A DNA stretch of 64,000 nucleotides, taken from assembly GCA_045862895.1 (NCBI GenBank), contig BTUO01000006.1:1-64000 (forward strand). The letters run 5' to 3'. This document shows, one piece after another, positions 1 to 26,224 of the stretch. The notes beneath the pieces are model-generated. The model saw only the letters and a program-made list of their open reading frames with translations, ran no database searches and was not told the origin of the DNA. The translations under genes and the position numbers were made by a program. Each line of letters starts with the position of its first letter. The stretch's first letter is position 1. Origin of the DNA: Acidobacteriota bacterium. GTDB taxonomy: Bacteria > Acidobacteriota > Thermoanaerobaculia > Multivoradales > JAGPDF01.

Positions 1-55
1 GCTTCGCGGTTCGCCGCCGGTGGCGCGCCGCTCAACTCATGAGCCGTTAGGCGGC
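1..55 (+). repeat. attC-like recombination-site repeat, copy 1 (5' half cut by window edge)
   Basis: 55 bp, 51/55 identical to 441-495. It ends in GTTAGGC (46-52), which fits the integron attC R' core GTTRRRY. It contains an internal stem GCTCA-N5-TGAGC and sits directly upstream of a small low-GC ORF. Confidence 0.35.
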
Positions 56-59
56 ACGA

Positions 60-386
60 TTGGAAATGGAGACTTATTTCGAGTTTCTGGCGACGAGCCT
101 GGGACTTGTCCTTGTACTGTTGCTGTACTTGCGGGGCCGCAGGCGCGCCTCAAGAGTCTCGCGGGAACGCGATTTCGTCGAGAAGTCGGTCGATCTAGTT
201 GTTTCGACGAGTCGTTTCCTGGACAACTTCGTCGCGGTCTTCGCTGTTGGCGTTGTTGTCTACCTGGCCTTCAGAGAGGCGCTGGTCGCGAAGATTCTTC
301 TCGTAACTTTGATTGCTATGGCGGTGATTGCGCTCGTTGCGCGCCTAAGAAGTCGAGTAGATTCCCACGTCGGAGGCGGCGCTTGA
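60..386 (+). CDS. small hydrophobic membrane protein (cassette-like ORF)
   Basis: 108-aa ORF with TTG start and two or three predicted TM helices. Its local GC is clearly lower than the window average, and it is bracketed by the two 55-bp direct repeats. Confidence 0.45.
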   Translation: MEMETYFEFLATSLGLVLVLLLYLRGRRRASRVSRERDFVEKSVDLVVSTSRFLDNFVAVFAVGVVVYLAFREALVAKILLVTLIAMAVIALVARLRSRVDSHVGGGA

Positions 387-393
387 TTGCCGT

Positions 394-495
394 GCCCTCT
401 AACAACTCGTTCGAGGGGACGCGCCCCGCAGCCGTGGCCCGCTTCGCGGTTCGTCGCTGGTGGCGCGCCGCTCAACTCATGAGCCGTTGGGCGAC
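394..495 (+). repeat. attC-like site, copy 2 (possible R'' GCCCTCTAAC at 394-406, R' GTTGGGC at 486-492)
   Basis: Bases 441-495 repeat bases 1-55. GTTGGGC is the GTTRRRY core. The exact reverse complement GTCGCCCAAC appears at 825-834, immediately after the next ORF stop. Confidence 0.4.
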
Positions 496-509
496 ATGAG
501 CAGCGATCG

Positions 510-818
510 ATGAGCGACCGGCGTCCTGAGTCTTTGGGTGAATGGGTTGACTACGACCCGACATGGCTCGTTGTGGAAGCTGCTCAGCGCGCCCCGGAGC
601 GCCCCGACCTGCAAGAGGCGCTTGCGCGATGTAGGCGGGCAAAGTGGGTGAGCGAGGCGTATCTCTATTTCGAAGAGGCCAGCCGACCCAACGAACCGGG
701 TTCCTCGTGGCAGTTTGAAGAGAACGTGATCCTCGAATCGACCCCAGAAGGGGACCTTGTCCTCGACCTGCTCAAGGGCAATAGAGTCGGCGGCATTGAG
801 TTCCTTAGTCGACTTTAG
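510..818 (+). CDS. hypothetical small soluble protein (cassette-like ORF)
   Basis: 102-aa ORF with ATG start, lower GC and a protein-like composition. It starts 15 bp after the attC-like repeat. Confidence 0.5.
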   Translation: MSDRRPESLGEWVDYDPTWLVVEAAQRAPERPDLQEALARCRRAKWVSEAYLYFEEASRPNEPGSSWQFEENVILESTPEGDLVLDLLKGNRVGGIEFLSRL

Positions 819-917
819 TGGCGTGTCGCCCAACACGACGCTCCGGCGGACAAGCGGGCCGCGCCCGCTCGCCGCCGGGCTCATGATCCGTGAGCCGACC
901 GAGGCCGATGGAACGAG

Positions 918-1241
918 ATGGGAGTCAGCATGATCGGTTTCTGGTTGGCTTGCGCCGGCGCTGCGACCGCTGCATTTCTGCTTTGTCGGAGGTGGTCGCA
1001 CCTCGCCCTGTTCGTCTTGCCGCTGTCGGTCGCTTTGCCCTGGGCACTCGCGGCGTCGGAGGGACCGGGCGGACCCCGGTTCCCGGGCGTGCAGATGCTT
1101 CACATTCTTGGCGCCTGTGCGCTGGTCTTGCTGGCCAACCTCGCAGGCATGCTGCTCGGCGGATTCAAGGTCGTGTTCTTTACGCTCCATCGCGGTCGTG
1201 ACGTCGCCTCAACAGGGAGTCGTGAACATGACCCGTCGTGA
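918..1241 (+). CDS. hypothetical membrane protein
   Basis: 107-aa ORF with three hydrophobic helices (an alternative ATG lies at 927). Same strand, ~100 bp spacer upstream. Confidence 0.4.
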   Translation: MGVSMIGFWLACAGAATAAFLLCRRWSHLALFVLPLSVALPWALAASEGPGGPRFPGVQMLHILGACALVLLANLAGMLLGGFKVVFFTLHRGRDVASTGSREHDPS

Positions 1242-1366
1242 CCGGTCGGCAGACCTTTCGTCCGAGCGGAGGCTCGACGCAGTCGTGGGCCGAATCGCGG
1301 CCCGGCACTGGTGGCTCGAGGCTCGGCTCAGGAGACATTGAACGGCATCTCTGACATCGTTGCCTC

Positions 1367-1750
1367 ATGACCGGCAAGCTCCTGCCAGCAGCGCAGCTCA
1401 TTGCCGACCGTCTGGCTCGTGAGATTCCCGAGCTTGCCTGGAGCATCGGTGCCAGCGAGTCCGGAGAGCTGGAGATGTGCGTTGCGGCACCGGACGGTTC
1501 GGCGGCGGGTGCGCTCGTTGTCATCACCCAGGAAGGCGATATCTGGGTGCGCTTTGCACCGCCCCGGCTGTTCTACGCGGTAGAGGACGTTCCCGAGCTG
1601 CTGTCGGTCGTTCGTGGCCTCATCTCGAGAGAGCTCGCCTTCAGGCGAACGTTCGATTCCGACGGATCCTGGCTTGGAACTACCCTGGTCGGCAATGCCG
1701 GCTTGGATCGCTCGGAGCTCGGTGAGCACGAGGTTGTCGTCGAATGGTGA
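1367..1750 (+). CDS. hypothetical protein
   Basis: 127-aa ORF with an acidic, protein-like composition, on the same strand as the array. Confidence 0.45.
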   Translation: MTGKLLPAAQLIADRLAREIPELAWSIGASESGELEMCVAAPDGSAAGALVVITQEGDIWVRFAPPRLFYAVEDVPELLSVVRGLISRELAFRRTFDSDGSWLGTTLVGNAGLDRSELGEHEVVVEW

Positions 1751-1830
1751 TGGCGACATGGCCGCAATGCCGCCTGAAGTTCCCCTCCGACGGACACACT
1801 CCGCGGCCGTGCCCCGCTTAGCGGCTGGAC

Positions 1831-2157
1831 ATGTCGGAGTCGACCATCAGGGACCCGCTGCTCGACGAGGCACTTCAGATCGTCACGCGATTCGGCCCGC
1901 AGCGACTGCGGCCCAAGGAGGAGAGACTGCTCGAGCTGCATCCCGGCACCCCGGAGCACCGGATGCGGGCGCTGTTCGACGAATGTTCGAAAATCGAAGC
2001 GTGGGCCTACGAGCTCGCCGGCCAGATCGACGCGAAGACCCTCGCGCGAGAAGAGGCACTCGAGCTGATTCTCGCCCGCTATCCCGACCTCACTTCCGAC
2101 ACCGCGAAACTGACTCTGTGGCACGGAACCTACTACTGGTGGCGAGACTACGGGTGA
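1831..2157 (+). CDS. hypothetical protein
   Basis: 108-aa ORF with helical, protein-like composition (WHGTYYWWRDYG C-terminus). Confidence 0.45.
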   Translation: MSESTIRDPLLDEALQIVTRFGPQRLRPKEERLLELHPGTPEHRMRALFDECSKIEAWAYELAGQIDAKTLAREEALELILARYPDLTSDTAKLTLWHGTYYWWRDYG

Positions 2158-2366
2158 GAGGCCCTGGCTTCGGCCGGGTCTTGCCATCGAACCTGCGGTT
2201 CCTGCGGCTGCCACGCCGCGCACGTGCGCCGCGGAGCTCGTGGTTCCTGGCGTGACGACTCGCGTCGCGGGGCGCGTTACGCGGGATTGTGACTCGGCAG
2301 CGCGCGGCGCTATCCTGCGGGCGCGCCCCTGAGCTCGAACGCCGTGGGGCGGCACTGGGAGCCCTC

Positions 2367-2921
2367 ATGGCTCGAGCAGCGACAGTCGACGGAGTGACCC
2401 TCGAGATCGCCACGATCGTGGCCCTCCTGACGCTCTCCGTCCCGCTCCCGGCGGTCGGCGACTCTCCTCTGAGGCCTCCTCATCGACACACGCAGTGCTC
2501 GCCGTCCGGGCAGTTCTGCGTCACCAGCGACCCGCAGGGCGGCACGTTCGTCCATCGCGCCGGAGAGGTCGGCGAGCCGCTCTGGTCGATACCGAAGTGG
2601 TTTCGCGTGCTGTACCTCGCGGACGATCCGGATCTCCTGGTGACCGGCTACGATGGCCAGAACCTCGTTCCGCTCGACGCGCCGGGGGACGTCGAGGTCC
2701 TGACCTTCTGGAGCCGCGGCAAGGTGGTCCGCAGCTACGAGCTGTCGGAGCTCGTCGCCGATCTCGGCAGGCTCCAGAGGACGGCGTCCCACTACCACTG
2801 GGGCAACTACCTGGGGTTCGACGACGAGGGGAACTTCAGGGTGACCATCGTCCAGGGCCAGACGCTCGTCTTCGATCCCGCCGAGGGCGCCCTCGTCGAC
2901 CGCTCGCGGAGGATCGACTGA
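2367..2921 (+). CDS. hypothetical protein (start uncertain, alternative 2289)
   Basis: In-frame ATG at 2367 (MARAATVDG...). Predicted beta-rich soluble protein. Confidence 0.4.
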   Translation: MARAATVDGVTLEIATIVALLTLSVPLPAVGDSPLRPPHRHTQCSPSGQFCVTSDPQGGTFVHRAGEVGEPLWSIPKWFRVLYLADDPDLLVTGYDGQNLVPLDAPGDVEVLTFWSRGKVVRSYELSELVADLGRLQRTASHYHWGNYLGFDDEGNFRVTIVQGQTLVFDPAEGALVDRSRRID

Positions 2922-3131
2922 CCGGTCGCGTCGGGACTTCTCCCGCGAGTCGCGCGACGCAGGGTTCCGACGAGGGGCAGGACGGCGGTCGCCTCCGCGA
3001 CCTCTCGTTTCGAGTCGAAGCAGGAGTCCGTCTCGTCGTTCCAGCGGACCGGCACGTTGCGCGTGCGCGCCGCGGATCTCTTGGTTTCGTAGACGACAGG
3101 GCCTCCGGCGGTTCGGAGGCGAGGAGAGGCG

Positions 3132-4010
3132 ATGAACGACGTGAGCGCCAACGCGAAGCAGGACGAGGCAGCCGCTGTCGAGGAGGCGCTGAGGAAGGAG
3201 CGCTACGAGCTCCTTCGACGCGTGGAGGACTTTCTGGAGGCGCCGATGCTGGTCCTCGCCTTCGTATGGTTGGCGCTGCTGGTGGTGGAGCTGACCTGGG
3301 GCGAGAGCCTGTTGTTCGAGAGCGTCGGCACGATCATCTGGATCATCTTCATCCTCGACTTCGCGATGGAGCTCGTGCTGGCTCCGGACAAGGTCGCCTA
3401 CCTGAAATCCAACTGGCTGACCGCCTTGGCGCTCCTGGTACCGGCGCTGCGCCTGTTCCGTGTCTTCCGGGTGTTCCGTCTGCTCCGACTGGCCCGCGTG
3501 GGACGGAGCTTTCGCCTGCTCCGCGTCGTCAGCTCGTTGAATCGCGGAATGCGTGCGCTCGGCGCGAGCCTGAGTCGGCGGGGTTTCGGCTACGTCATCG
3601 CGCTCACGATGCTGGTCACGTTCACCGGCGCGGCCGGAATGTACGCCTTCGAGAACGGATCTCCGGGCGGTATGGAGAGCTACGGTGAAGCGTTGTGGTG
3701 GACCGCGATGGTCCTCACCACGATGGGCTCGCAGTACTGGCCGGAGACGGTCGAGGGGCGCGTGCTGTGCGTCTTCCTGGCGCTGTATGGCTTCGCGGTC
3801 TTCGGTTTCGTGACGGCGACGCTGGCCACCTTCTTCATCGGTCGCGACGCGGACAACGACGAAGCCGAGCTCGCGGGTGGCAGGCAACTGGCCGCACTCC
3901 GGGAGGAGGTCATCGCCTTGCGCGAGGAGCTTCGGCGAGCGGCCGCGGCGGGTTCCGGGGTCGCGAAGCGGGATCCGATGGAGGGGATGACCGGTCGGCA
4001 GGATGGGTGA
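3132..4010 (+). CDS. voltage-gated-type ion channel (ion transport protein family) with non-canonical pore signature
   Basis: RBS GAGGAG upstream. Six TM segments, an S4 helix with Arg every third residue (RLFRVFRVFRLLRLARVGR), and pore helix EALWWTAMVLTTMGSQYW. Confidence 0.8.
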   Translation: MNDVSANAKQDEAAAVEEALRKERYELLRRVEDFLEAPMLVLAFVWLALLVVELTWGESLLFESVGTIIWIIFILDFAMELVLAPDKVAYLKSNWLTALALLVPALRLFRVFRVFRLLRLARVGRSFRLLRVVSSLNRGMRALGASLSRRGFGYVIALTMLVTFTGAAGMYAFENGSPGGMESYGEALWWTAMVLTTMGSQYWPETVEGRVLCVFLALYGFAVFGFVTATLATFFIGRDADNDEAELAGGRQLAALREEVIALREELRRAAAAGSGVAKRDPMEGMTGRQDG

Positions 4011-22459: not shown

Positions 22460-23071
22460 ATGCGGAACCCACGCTGGTGGTCGCTGGTTTGGCTCGTCGG
22501 CATCTCGGTATCTCCTTCGGCGGCGCAGAATGCGCTGCTCAACCCTGACTTCGGCGTGGACGTCGCCGGCTGGCAGACCTTTCTCGGCAGCCTCGATCTC
22601 GACCCGATGCACGAAGACGCCGACGGCTGTCCCGAATCGTCGAGCGGCCGGCTGGTCGCCGCATCGCAGTCCGGCCCCGAGTTTCTCGGTCTGCTGCAGG
22701 CGACCGACTCGTGCCTCGACGTCGCTCCCCTCCAGGAGGTATGGATCGACGCGACGCTCTGGCTGCGCAGCGCCGGATTCGTCGCGGTCGGCTTGATCCT
22801 CCTCGAGTACACGGACGATGCCTGTACGACGTTCCTCGATCCGCCGGTCCAGACGGCGATCGAGCTCTCCGTCGGCTCGACTCCGGAGGCAGAGCATCTG
22901 TCGGTCACGACTTCGGCGGGAGTCGAGTCGGTCGGCCTGCAGATCGATACGGGGGCGATCGTCCCGAACGCTCTCCTGCTCGACCGGCTCTATCTCGGCA
23001 CCGCCGAGCGGGTTTTCGCGGACGACTTCGAAGGCGGCTCGACCTGTCGCTGGAGCGCCGGAGCGATCTGA
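22460..23071 (+). CDS. secreted CBM4_9-like jelly-roll domain protein, tagged
   Basis: Signal peptide MRNPRWWSLVWLVGISVSPSAAQ. The mature protein starts NALLNPDFGVDVAGWQ and ends ...VFADDFEGGSTCRWSAGAI. Confidence 0.6.
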   Translation: MRNPRWWSLVWLVGISVSPSAAQNALLNPDFGVDVAGWQTFLGSLDLDPMHEDADGCPESSSGRLVAASQSGPEFLGLLQATDSCLDVAPLQEVWIDATLWLRSAGFVAVGLILLEYTDDACTTFLDPPVQTAIELSVGSTPEAEHLSVTTSAGVESVGLQIDTGAIVPNALLLDRLYLGTAERVFADDFEGGSTCRWSAGAI

Positions 23072-23503
23072 CGGAAGCCGGGGCGACGAGAAACTGCGTG
23101 CACGGCCATCGCAGGGCGGGGGGTCGCAGCTGCGAAGTCTCCGGTCAAGACGCCGCCGGACTCTGAATCGCGAAGGAGCGGTGGAACGGTTGGCCGTTGC
23201 CAGTTCGTCAGCGGCTGCCCATGGCGCCAGCCCCTAATCCGACGAAGCGCCCGAATCGGTTTCCTCGCGGGTCCCCGTCGAGTAGGTAGTCCTGGAGAAC
23301 GGGCAGTCGGTAGGGCAGTCACGATCTCCTGCTCGCGCCAACGGAAGGGTCTCGTGGACGCCAGCCGGAGGTCGGACTTTCAGCCGGAATGGTTCAACAG
23401 TCGCCGATCGTGAACAGAGCCGGTATGCGAGCGAGTAGCGTGGGTCTTTCGTTTCGAGTAGCGTCCATGACGTCGAGAGATCCTCGCACGGAGGAGGTGG
23501 ATC

Positions 23504-24778
23504 TTGCTCCGATTGCATCCATGTGCAAGTCGCATCGCAGCCTTCTCTTGCCTCGCGGGTGCTGTAGGCAGTATTTCGAAGGGCCAGCTACTCGGGCCCG
23601 AGTTTCAAGTGAATACGTACACCACTAGCTCGCAAGAACGGCCGGCAGTTGCCGCGATCGGGGATGAGAGCTTCGTGGTCGTGTGGGAAAGCTACGGCCA
23701 GGACGGTTGGCACCTGGGGGTTTTCGGACAGCGCTTCGGCGACGGAGCGCAGCCAATCGGAAGCGAATTTCAAGTCAACTCGATGACGGTCGGCAGGCAG
23801 TTCCGAGTCGCGGTGGCCGCCGAACCGAGCGGCGAGTTCGTGGTGGCCTGGGAGAGCTACTACGCGAACGACACGGATGTCTTCGCTCGTCGTTTCGATT
23901 CCGAGGGCAACCCAGAAGGGGAGGAGTTCCAGGTCAACAGCCGAACATCGGGTGGGCACTGCTGCGTCGACGTTCATCGGGATGGCCAGGGCGGCTTTGT
24001 TGCTCTCTGGGAGAACACTCTCTATCCCTCTCCATCCGAGATTCTCTTCCGTCGATTCGATTCCAGCGGCGTACCAATGGGCGAAGAGGTCTCCGTTGCA
24101 GGCGGCCATCCGTTGATTGGATCGCCGCGTGCCTCGATGCTCGGAATAGAAGGCTTGGCGGTGGTTTGGGAAGACCGCCCAGGGACCGATTGGGACGTGC
24201 TGGCCCGTCGCTTGGATCCGACGGGACAGCCATTGGGTGAAGCGTTCGTCGTCAGCAGTCAAGCGACGTACAATCAAAGTTCTCCGAGTGTCGGAGCGGA
24301 CTCTGAGGGAAACTTCGTCGTGGTCTGGAACTCGACGATCGGTGGTACGGAGCAAGGCTTCGGGAGGCGATTCAGTTCGACAGGCAGCGCTCTGGGAGAC
24401 GAGTTCGCGATCAACTCCTTCTACCCCTGGAGCGAATGGGAGATAGACCCTGTCGTGGCAGTTGATGGTTCGGGATCCTTCCTGGTCACGTGGCTACCTT
24501 GGGGCGTGGACGAAATCCTTGGTCAGCGGTTTCGTCCGACCGGCGCTCCGGCGGGAAACCGATTTCAAATCAACGAGTACACGCCCGGGCATCAGATGCA
24601 TTCCGCCGTTGCGGCGAACGGCGCCGGGGACTTCGTGATCGTATGGGACAGCTACGGCCAAGACGGTTCACGACACGGAGTGTGGGGGAGACGACTCCGG
24701 ATGCCGTACTTCGCTGACGGCTTCGAATCCGCGGATGTCTGCGAATGGAGTGCGACATTGGGCGGTGACTGCGTGTGA
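23504..24778 (+). CDS. secreted protein of seven ~53-aa repeats (EFQVN-Y-T-G-Q...FVVVW-S-GQDG...GVFGRRF), probable beta-propeller, tagged
   Basis: TTG start plus signal peptide. Seven tandem repeats are readable in the translation. Ends ...MPYFADGFESADVCEWSATLGGDCV. Confidence 0.7.
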   Translation: MLRLHPCASRIAAFSCLAGAVGSISKGQLLGPEFQVNTYTTSSQERPAVAAIGDESFVVVWESYGQDGWHLGVFGQRFGDGAQPIGSEFQVNSMTVGRQFRVAVAAEPSGEFVVAWESYYANDTDVFARRFDSEGNPEGEEFQVNSRTSGGHCCVDVHRDGQGGFVALWENTLYPSPSEILFRRFDSSGVPMGEEVSVAGGHPLIGSPRASMLGIEGLAVVWEDRPGTDWDVLARRLDPTGQPLGEAFVVSSQATYNQSSPSVGADSEGNFVVVWNSTIGGTEQGFGRRFSSTGSALGDEFAINSFYPWSEWEIDPVVAVDGSGSFLVTWLPWGVDEILGQRFRPTGAPAGNRFQINEYTPGHQMHSAVAANGAGDFVIVWDSYGQDGSRHGVWGRRLRMPYFADGFESADVCEWSATLGGDCV

Positions 24779-24936
24779 CCACGGGCTCCTTCGACATCGC
24801 CGTAGTCGCTGACGGACGTCCTACGTCGCATCCTGCAACCGTCGAGGCGTGGCAGAGTCAGGTTCGCGTCAAGGGCCTTCGGTCAGCGTCCTCCTGAGTA
24901 TTCTCGGGGGCCCCAGCGGACGCCCCGGGGATCGAT

Positions 24937-25063
24937 GGTGGCAGCTCCCGATTCTCCGGAGCTCTGGAGTCCCTCTCCTCCAGGGATGTCCTGGATGCCA
25001 GGATTCTGGGAGGTGGGAGCTGTCACCCTTTCAAGGAAATCGGTGGCTGCCCCCGATTCTTCG
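24937..25063 (+). repeat. composite of three motif copies (GGTGGCAGCTCCC-GATTCTCCGG; inverse GGGAGCTGTCACC; GGTGGCTGCCCCC-GATTCTTCG)
   Basis: Read directly, immediately upstream of the 25076 GTG start. Confidence 0.7.
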
Positions 25064-25075
25064 TAGGATCGGAGG

Positions 25076-26224
25076 GTGAGTCTCGAGGAGCGGTTGCGGC
25101 GATGGTTCGGCGACGACGAGCCGACGCGGCTCGGGTCCGGGTGGACGAGCGGCGTGCTGGCGGTCTTCCTCGGCGCGGTCGGGCTCGCGGCGGTGGTCTG
25201 CTTCCATTTCCCGTCGCTGTTGACGATGCCGGAGCTGCGCGCGGTCTATCCGATGCGGCTGGTGCGCACGGCGGTCGAGATCGTGATCGGCGCCGCGTTC
25301 CTGCTCGGGCTGCTGAGCCTCGCGCTGCGCCGGCGCAAGGTGCTCGGGACGACCGGCGTCGCGCTCGCGCTCGCCGCCGGGCTCGCCGGCGGCGGGGCGG
25401 TCGAGGTCGACGGGCCGGTCGCGAGGTCGCCCTACCTCGGGCTCGACTGGTTCCTGCTCAACATCCTGATGCTCTGCGTCGTCTTCGTGCCGCTCGAGAA
25501 GCTGGTCCCGCTGCGCCCGCGCGGCTTCTTCCGCGCCGGCTGGGCGACCGACGGCGTCTACTTCCTCGCCAGCCACCTGCTGGTGCAGGTCTCGACGCTG
25601 CTGACGCTGGCGCCCGCCACCGTGCTGTTCGCCTGGGCGCGCAGCGAGCGGGTGACCGCGGCGGTGGCGGCGTGGCCCGTGCTCGTTCAGTTCGTCGCGA
25701 TCGTGCTGGTCGCCGATCTCGCCGAGTACGGCATCCACCGGCTCTTCCACCGCGTCCCCTGGCTCTGGCCGTTCCACGAGGTCCACCACTCGAGCCGCGA
25801 GATGGACTGGCTGGCCGGCTCGCGGCTCCACCTGGTCGACGTCGTCGCGACGCGCGGCTTCACCTTCCTGCCCATCCACCTGCTCGGCTTCGAGCGCGGG
25901 CCGGTCGTCGCCTACCTCGCGTTCGTGTCGGTGCACGCCGTGTTCATCCACGCCAACGTGCGTCTGCGCTTCGGCGGACTCGAGCGGCTGGTGGTGACGC
26001 CGCACTTCCACCACTGGCACCACGCCGAGGAGCGCGCGGCGGTCGACAGGAACTTCGCCGTCCACTTCCCGTGGATCGATCGCCTGTTCGGCACCTTTCA
26101 CGCGCCGCTCGAGCGCTGGCCCGAGCGCTACGGCGTCGCGCCCGATCGCGTCCCCGACGGCTACCTGGCGCAGCTCGCCTTCCCGTTCGCGCCGACCCCC
26201 GACGAGACCGAACCATCGCGTTGA
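25076..26224 (+). CDS. sterol desaturase / fatty-acid hydroxylase superfamily membrane protein
   Basis: His boxes HRLFHRV, HEVHHSSREMDW and HHWHH; multiple TM helices. Confidence 0.75.
   Translation: MSLEERLRRWFGDDEPTRLGSGWTSGVLAVFLGAVGLAAVVCFHFPSLLTMPELRAVYPMRLVRTAVEIVIGAAFLLGLLSLALRRRKVLGTTGVALALAAGLAGGGAVEVDGPVARSPYLGLDWFLLNILMLCVVFVPLEKLVPLRPRGFFRAGWATDGVYFLASHLLVQVSTLLTLAPATVLFAWARSERVTAAVAAWPVLVQFVAIVLVADLAEYGIHRLFHRVPWLWPFHEVHHSSREMDWLAGSRLHLVDVVATRGFTFLPIHLLGFERGPVVAYLAFVSVHAVFIHANVRLRFGGLERLVVTPHFHHWHHAEERAAVDRNFAVHFPWIDRLFGTFHAPLERWPERYGVAPDRVPDGYLAQLAFPFAPTPDETEPSR

Follow-up and report, generated by a model that had tools for sequence, protein, structure and literature searches.

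The left end of a 64,000-nucleotide stretch of an Acidobacteriota contig (BTUO01000006.1, positions 1 to 64,000 of the forward strand; referred to here as the window) opens with a 55-bp sequence that recurs downstream of the first small open reading frame (ORF), and the question raised by this locus is whether such repeats are recombination sites (attC) of an integron or belong to an unrelated class of repeated element. Window positions 1 to ∼3100 are interpreted here as a gene-cassette array of the chromosomal integron type, seen at its attI-distal end; the host would be a high-GC bacterium, most likely of the Thermoanaerobaculia (Acidobacteriota). A probability of roughly 0.88 is assigned to the array reading. 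A sequence-only reading of the same DNA had proposed an integron cassette array, and that proposal is supported by models of the site, by its fold and covariation, and by complementarity specific to individual cassettes. Each unit of the array joins a single small ORF, which has no promoter, to an attC site on its 3' side. According to established integron biology, the bottom strand of an attC site would fold to an imperfect hairpin; the integron integrase would recognise this hairpin through its R and L boxes and its extrahelical G16 and T23, and would cleave the AAC triplet of the R' core (between G and TT on the top strand). Excision would proceed by recombination between two attC sites and re-insertion would take place at attI, and with new cassettes entering at the upstream attI, those at the far end would lose their sites and become fixed genes.

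Direct comparison of 1–55 with 441–495 gives 51 matches in 55 bases with four differences, exactly as first read. The degenerate 55-mer, allowing up to three mismatches, occurs twice in 64 kb, at these two positions (shuffled sequences lead to an expectation of zero), and a third, weaker copy with 64% identity lies at 1292–1350. The core heptamers noticed at the repeat ends are likewise present, GTTAGGC at 46–52 and GTTGGGC at 486–492, and GTCGCCCAAC (825–834) is the exact reverse complement of GTTGGGCGAC (486–495), as had been claimed. GCCCTCTAAC does follow the stop codon of the first ORF; it spans 394–403, however, rather than the 394–406 given originally. Six small ORFs follow one another on one strand (66–386, 510–818, 930–1241, 1367–1750, 1831–2157, and 2367–2921), in agreement with the run of same-strand ORFs described earlier, and are separated by spacers of 123, 111, 125, 80, and 209 bp, so that the stated range of 80–130 bp holds for the first four spacers and not for the last. 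The first cassettes are AT-rich, as observed in the sequence-only reading: the GC fraction is 0.615 for positions 1–1000 and 0.649 for 1001–2000, compared with 0.71 for the remaining window. None of the six ORFs in the array receives a Pfam family, and the cassettes, whose function is unknown, carry no resistance genes. For the cassette 1 protein, taken from either of two alternative start codons, exact look-ups gave no recorded match, and a scan of the whole window at Rfam gathering thresholds gave no match, Rfam having no attC family.

Related sites were collected outside the window. An exact scan of species-representative genomes with an L'–R' arm query returned one contig (L006) of a Thermoanaerobaculia metagenome-assembled genome (MAG), and a metagenome scan with the attC core returned four short contigs (L007–L010); together L006–L010 contribute another eight sites of this attC family that are complete or almost so. 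Seven sites on other contigs, aligned without any window sequence (alignment A2), served to build a covariance model, R1, which was run with filters off on both window strands, for which the noise floor is ∼17 bits. R1 matches 392–497 (95.3 bits, E = 1e-20) and 823–900 (27.9 bits, E = 2.6e-4), and nothing else on either strand of the 64-kb window exceeds the noise floor; segments 1243–1344, 1767–1873, and 2252–2355 score 12–16 bits, which is noise level. An nhmmer profile of eight non-window sites (array-context copies on the same contigs) matches 1–56 (E = 2.7e-12), 392–497 (E = 2.5e-26), and 1252–1346 (E = 1.2e-7), with a marginal match at 1768–1829 (E = 0.017). The repeats at 1–55 and 441–495, which a model built without window sequence recovers, each form the 3' arm of an attC site; sites are numbered here attC0 onward from the left. 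Their attC identity as originally suggested is thus borne out by non-window models, by a canonical hairpin, and by complementarity between each R'' region and the 5' end of its own cassette. In a scan with the 28-nt consensus of the 3' arm, the top five of ∼128,000 positions are 23, 463, 867, 2321, and 3065, all of them in + strand spacers that immediately precede ORFs, and the array therefore probably once reached ∼3092. The later spacers had been described as showing no clean cores, which is correct, yet they carry homologous relics of the same attC site, and the mutated and truncated later sites agree with the suggestion that the array is partly degenerate.

Folding of the spacers, which had been proposed as a check, yields the bulged-hairpin layout of attC sites with extrahelical bases. 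Bottom strands folded with DNA parameters reach −30 to −43 kcal/mol and display an R box, an unpaired spacer, an L box, and a terminal structure. In the consensus fold, an unpaired spacer of 3 nt separates the R stem from the L stem, with 98.9% of cells paired compared with 25–43% in slid controls; seven pairs change on both sides, and the covariation score observed was not attained in any of 500 shuffles. On the top strand, column 21 (C) and column 28 (A, once G) stay unpaired and flank the pairs of columns 22–27; counted on the bottom strand from the R'' box, these two columns correspond to extrahelical G16 and T23 (once C) with a six-bp stem between them; the window positions concerned are, for attC1, C412 and A419, and, for attC2, C843 and A850. 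The usual extrahelical bases of attC sites are G16 and T23 or T24, their 6-bp spacing is required by IntI1, and attC sites range from 57 to 141 nt in length (Nivina et al., 2016, PMC5027507). Measured from core to core, attC1 (96 nt, 397–492) and attC2 (69 nt, 828–896) both fall within that range. When the cores were compared with the consensus RYYYAAC for R'' and GTTRRRY for R', the R' cores of attC0 and attC1 and the R'' core of attC2 agreed with it; the R' core of attC2 (GTGAGCC) and both cores of attC3 (GGCAGAC and ATTGAAC) departed from it, as did the truncated attC4.

The boundaries of the mobile unit are indicated by complementarity within cassettes. In most of 12 cassettes, 6–8 of the eight bases past the conserved GTTAG at the 5' end can pair with the bases that precede the R'' of that same cassette, whereas the end of the neighbouring cassette, which physically abuts the attC site, pairs at only 3–6 of 8 (Watson–Crick plus G–T pairs were counted, and the neighbour comparison covers 9 of the 12 cassettes). 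Such complementarity with the cassette's own end argues that the mobile unit is an ORF plus its attC site, as expected for a circle formed by crossover between G and TT. Within the window, the 5' end of cassette 1, GTTAGGCGGCACG, is complementary to its own R'' region at 11 of 13 positions with one additional G–T pair. The 5' end of cassette 3, GTGAGCCGACCG, and its 3' counterpart, CGGTCGGCAGAC, are complementary at 7 of 8 positions beyond the mutated cores, and in cassette 4 the sequence CGGCAT (1344–1349, directly 3' of ATTGAAC) complements ATGCCG (1767–1772).

Along the array, the GTT/AAC core reads GTT, GTT, GTG, and ATT before the truncated site is reached. This decay from left to right parallels a rise in the GC content of third codon positions (GC3), which a comparison of codon composition, suggested in the sequence-only reading, places at 0.636, 0.660, 0.721, 0.719, 0.807, and 0.881 for ORFs 1 to 6 in order; host genes 3' of the array have GC3 values of 0.81–0.93, so that the rise from 0.64 ends at the host level of 0.88. 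Taken together, core decay and GC3 rise are read as an age gradient, and they fit an array with recent foreign cassettes upstream and old, immobilised, compositionally adapted cassettes downstream. Cassette 1 (47–486) is the sole cassette between two sites with intact GTT cores; since attC0 and attC1 lack none of the structural or core features that a substrate has, this cassette could, judging from its sequence, still move, and its excised circle would be expected to carry the junction of ...CTCATGAGCCG with TTAGGCGGCACG. From 459 or 460 onward, the window is matched at 100% identity by four contigs of other sequencing runs, such contigs being present in SRR16472567, DRR491769, SRR19543601, and SRR19543875, and a fifth (L004), from a strain with 98.7% identity, has the same dead attC3 cores, which indicates that the distal part of the array is stable and inherited. 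All Logan contigs with cassette 2 start at ∼459–464, inside the repeat and 47–52 nt 5' of the gene, consistent with short-k-mer assembly breaking at a 30-nt exact repeat. Read as an age gradient, one 3-kb stretch displays cassette ageing, with stepwise core loss and codon composition drifting toward that of the host, and the locus would provide direct evidence on how captured genes turn into ordinary chromosomal genes.

The nearest known kind of system is the sedentary chromosomal integron, with homogeneous attC sites of ∼100 nt and cassettes of unknown function. Like the arrays of Vibrio cholerae (whose attC sites are the V. cholerae repeats, VCR) and Xanthomonas, each with an attC family homogeneous within its lineage, the window array consists of small, mostly unknown ORFs on one strand, has R'' and R' cores, a folded bottom strand with extrahelical bases, and cassettes whose composition departs from that of the host; toxin-antitoxin-like cassettes occur here in a related array (L013). 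The window differs in containing only the distal part of an array, without integrase, attI, or cassette promoter (Pc), and in its progressive loss of GTT/AAC, and its 71% GC genome of Acidobacteriota type differs from the Gammaproteobacterium hosts of those arrays. Extrahelical G16 and T23, a 6-bp stem, a short unpaired central spacer, and crossover between G and TT are shared with attC sites of mobile-integron cassettes such as attCaadA7 (PMC5027507). Unlike attCaadA7, the sites described here have a longer terminal structure (∼100 nt sites compared with ∼60) and form a sequence-homogeneous family, as in sedentary integrons. The R''–L'' arm of attCaadA7 (TCTAAC..TTCGTTC.AG) is presumably similar in sequence as well. 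Integrons are best known from Proteobacteria and antibiotic resistance, and Acidobacteriota arrays mainly from bulk surveys. Chromosomal integrons with taxon-specific attC sites are already known in Acidobacteria, for which an Acidobacteria-specific attC covariance model exists (Ghaly et al., 2021, PMC8352920), and the occurrence of the present attC family in the Thermoanaerobaculia MAG resembles those cases; the array is therefore a further case of a known gene-capture system. What goes beyond routine is the clean gradient of decay and adaptation and, in relatives, an apparently active insertion junction without a neighbouring integrase.

Several observations weigh against the interpretation as an integron-type array. 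The R'' core of attC1, CTCTAAC, begins with C rather than a purine; the window opens inside an attC site, and the upstream flank, where the sequence-only reading expected the integrase and attI, is out of view; and the link between this attC family and Thermoanaerobaculia runs through the single MAG contig L006. The structural model passes two complete sites only, attC1 and attC2, while sites 3 and 4 are recognised by sequence homology and sites 5 and 6 by the rank of weak matches, so that statistically supported attC sites account for four cassettes only, with weak relics for the fifth and sixth. Furthermore, tblastn with IntI1 and XerC, both used as plain sequence probes rather than curated profiles, found nothing below E = 1 in the 64-kb window and L001–L010, the loci covered by that search.

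Further arrays of this attC family have their heads on contigs L006 (minus strand, ∼1200–985), L009, and L019–L027, which share a common leader composed of a promoter-like TTGAC-N18-TACTCT, a further ∼130 nt, and a junction at which GCCGTCGAATTCAGAG meets TTAG; the conserved 3' end of the leader is GAATTCAGAG followed by TTAG. Past the GTTAG of the leader the sequences are unrelated, with at least six different first cassettes, one of which encodes a DUF1841 protein; three of these (in L006, in L022/24/26, and in L023/25/27) stand behind near-identical leaders and the other three behind diverged leaders. At least six first cassettes at one junction between G and TT point to repeated site-specific recombination, as recombination of attI with attC would give, and the conserved junction is accordingly described from its sequence as attI-like and the leader as promoter-like. 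The leader motif does not occur in the window, nor was any attI or cassette promoter found there. These heads constitute a natural experiment in cassette turnover and could reveal a platform that works without an adjacent integrase. A partly palindromic GCGACAGAAACTGTCGC is located directly before the −35-like box of the leader. Just after guaB and upstream of the head, three to four tandem units of ∼30 nt (GGTGGATCGAGCGCTAACCGCGCTC...) are found in L006 (∼3010–2920, minus strand) and L020 (1–110), and L006, L019, and L022 carry an Arr-ms-like ORF between these units and a TlpA-like gene; L020 has no such ORF. On L006 (∼160–1, minus strand) and L020 (2450–2482), some cassettes end in an ordinary R'' (GTCGCCTAAC or CTGCCACCTAAC), after which both contigs continue with a common sequence CCCnTCGTATCTGGACTCCTCCCGCA..., which gives no match to the attC family model and might represent either another type of attC site or an inserted element.

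The alternative that survives best, and that is compatible with an integron-type array in the window, is an orphan attC-site cluster that has no integron integrase (CALIN), or an attI and promoter set apart from intI, the integrase being encoded elsewhere and acting in trans or having been lost; it is given a little less than an even chance. A CALIN is defined as two or more attC sites on the same strand, separated by less than 4 kb and without intI in the vicinity; CALINs are common, and half are on replicons encoding IntI elsewhere (Cury et al., 2016, PMC4889954). The window resembles them in having two or more attC sites on a single strand within a distance of 4 kb, cassettes of unknown function with none for resistance, and no intI in the sequence at hand, which covers the downstream side only. 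In agreement, the 61 kb downstream of the array contain no tyrosine recombinase, the 5.3 kb upstream of the L006 leader contain TlpA-like, Arr-ms-like, guaB, and secA genes and no intI, and no intI is called in the 0.4–2 kb of upstream sequence of L009 and L019–L027 (tblastn covered L009 only). On the other hand, L006 is the only contig that reaches more than ∼2 kb upstream of an array head, most related contigs being just 1–2.8 kb long, and the integrase probes were plain sequences rather than curated profiles, as mentioned above. In addition, the related arrays depart from the CALIN definition in having a conserved attI-like leader, and the label requires the whole neighbourhood, of which the upstream side lies outside the window. 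Moreover, the window and the TlpA-linked head are not connected by any contig, one genome may carry several arrays, and the window array may belong to another locus with an adjacent intI. The specific form of this alternative in which, in this Thermoanaerobaculia lineage, a functional attI and the cassette promoter lie 3' of the TlpA-like gene and still acquire cassettes although no integrase is adjacent, with the integrase supplied in trans and the window as the fossilising tail of the array, is considered rather unlikely; if true, the window would be a readable time series of cassette domestication.

A far less probable explanation is that the repeats are palindromic elements of the repetitive extragenic palindromic (REP) or bacterial interspersed mosaic element (BIME) type, or terminators, unrelated to integrons. 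As would suit such elements, the repeats are GC-rich hairpins in intergenic positions after stop codons. However, copies occur only within 1–3100 on the + strand, and the other 61 kb yield none by pattern, profile, or structural model, so that the dispersal characteristic of REP and BIME elements, with many copies in both orientations, is not seen within the 64-kb window. The hairpins are not followed by a T-run as terminators would be, and covariation links the flanking boxes to the start of their own cassette, which is not required of such elements. With this one-strand confinement to 3 kb, the cassette-specific complementarity, bulged bases at the exact attC positions, and first cassettes that differ at one fixed junction, the REP and terminator readings were rejected.

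The least probable explanation, that the repeats are transposable-element ends or remnants of miniature inverted-repeat transposable elements (MITEs) or insertion sequences (IS) with the small ORFs being incidental, draws on the association of insertion sequences with these sites, as in L007, where an IS110-family-like transposase lies against the 3' half of an attC site, but is contradicted by units that lack terminal inverted repeats plus target-site duplications, by direct copies that alternate regularly with ORFs, by an IS in L007 that interrupts the attC site rather than defining it, and by the same confinement, complementarity, bulges, and variable first cassettes. The L007 transposase ORF occupies ∼690–1880 on the minus strand, directly against the attC site (R1 match at 1809–1874), and a separate R''-like GCCGCCTAAC is found near position 185; the arrangement has the appearance of an insertion sequence located inside or beside an attC site. 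Elements of the IS1111 type that target attC sites have been described.

As an integron-type array, the locus can be followed element by element along the + strand. The window begins within attC0 (1–52), of which the 3' half remains after the cut at the window start, corresponding to nhmmer profile positions 50–105, with GTT intact in its R' core at 46–52. Cassette 1 starts at T47 and comprises the ORF at 66–386 (106 amino acids (aa), hydrophobic, no family) and attC1 (392–497), which is intact, with R'' at 397–403, R' at 486–492, and a fold of −30.7 kcal/mol with a bulged L stem. Cassette 2 (487–890) comprises the ORF at 510–818 (102 aa, no Pfam family) and attC2 (823–900), a short variant with reduced terminal structure; its R'' core, GCCCAAC at 828–834, is intact and its R' core at 890–896 is degenerate, its fold reaches −35.1 kcal/mol, and its 3' arm matches the consensus at 24 of 28 positions, the third best score in the window. 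The ORF of cassette 3 (930–1241) encodes 103 aa, hydrophobic and without a family, and is followed by attC3 (1243–1344), a full-length site with dead cores (R''-like at 1248–1254, R'-like at 1337–1343) that aligns with the attC family and scores 16.4 bits with the structural model, at noise level. The ORF of cassette 4 (1367–1750; 127 aa, no family) is followed by attC4 (1767–1830), of which the 5' half is present and the 3' half deleted, the marginal nhmmer match at 1768–1829 corresponding to profile positions 2–63.

Directly abutting attC4 is ORF 5 (1831–2157; 108 aa, no family, GC3 0.807), which from its position is probably a former cassette. One or two weak relics of attC 3' arms follow within 2224–2350, at 2224–2251 (19 of 28 positions) and 2321–2348 (21 of 28, the fourth best); they end in GTGGGGC (2344–2350) just before ORF 6 and are not significant by the profile or the covariance model. 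ORF 6 (2367–2921; 184 aa, no family), with its host-like GC3 of 0.881, is probably also a former cassette. The weakest relic of a 3' arm, GCGCGCCGCGGATCTCTTGGTTTCGTAG at 3065–3092 (20 of 28, the fifth best), is alone not significant and is related to 2212–2245 (repeat family D2); it may represent the array's final vestige before an ion-channel gene (3132–4010), an ordinary gene that is followed by others.

Homologues of the cassette 2 protein occur in at least five other, unrelated genomic neighbourhoods. One of them, with 47% identity, is itself a cassette between two attC sites in L013, part of a 4.1-Mb genome in which 24 attC sites were detected on the + strand over 17 kb. This same-strand array (L013, 1–20297) has attC sites of ∼86 nt and toxin-antitoxin-like cassettes (Gp49/HTH_3, CopG), and it contains an internal duplication in which 246-aa and 138-aa 4HBT_2 cassettes are each present in two copies. 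No attC site is detectable around the homologue with 76% identity in L011/L012, which alone is no evidence of mobility.

Two further observations were made. The ends of L008 (1–1376) repeat, 1–126 being equal to 1251–1376, and its three cassettes assemble as a 1250-bp circle, which could be an assembly artefact of repeated attC sites, a tandem duplication, or an excised multi-cassette circle. Elsewhere in the window, positions 23000–25100 form a second low-GC stretch (GC 0.61–0.63) that may be another acquired segment; it includes an ORF at 23504–24778 (424 aa) whose product has a signal-like N-terminus and contains FQVN motifs in repeated form, and a long hairpin comes next, at 24938–25026.

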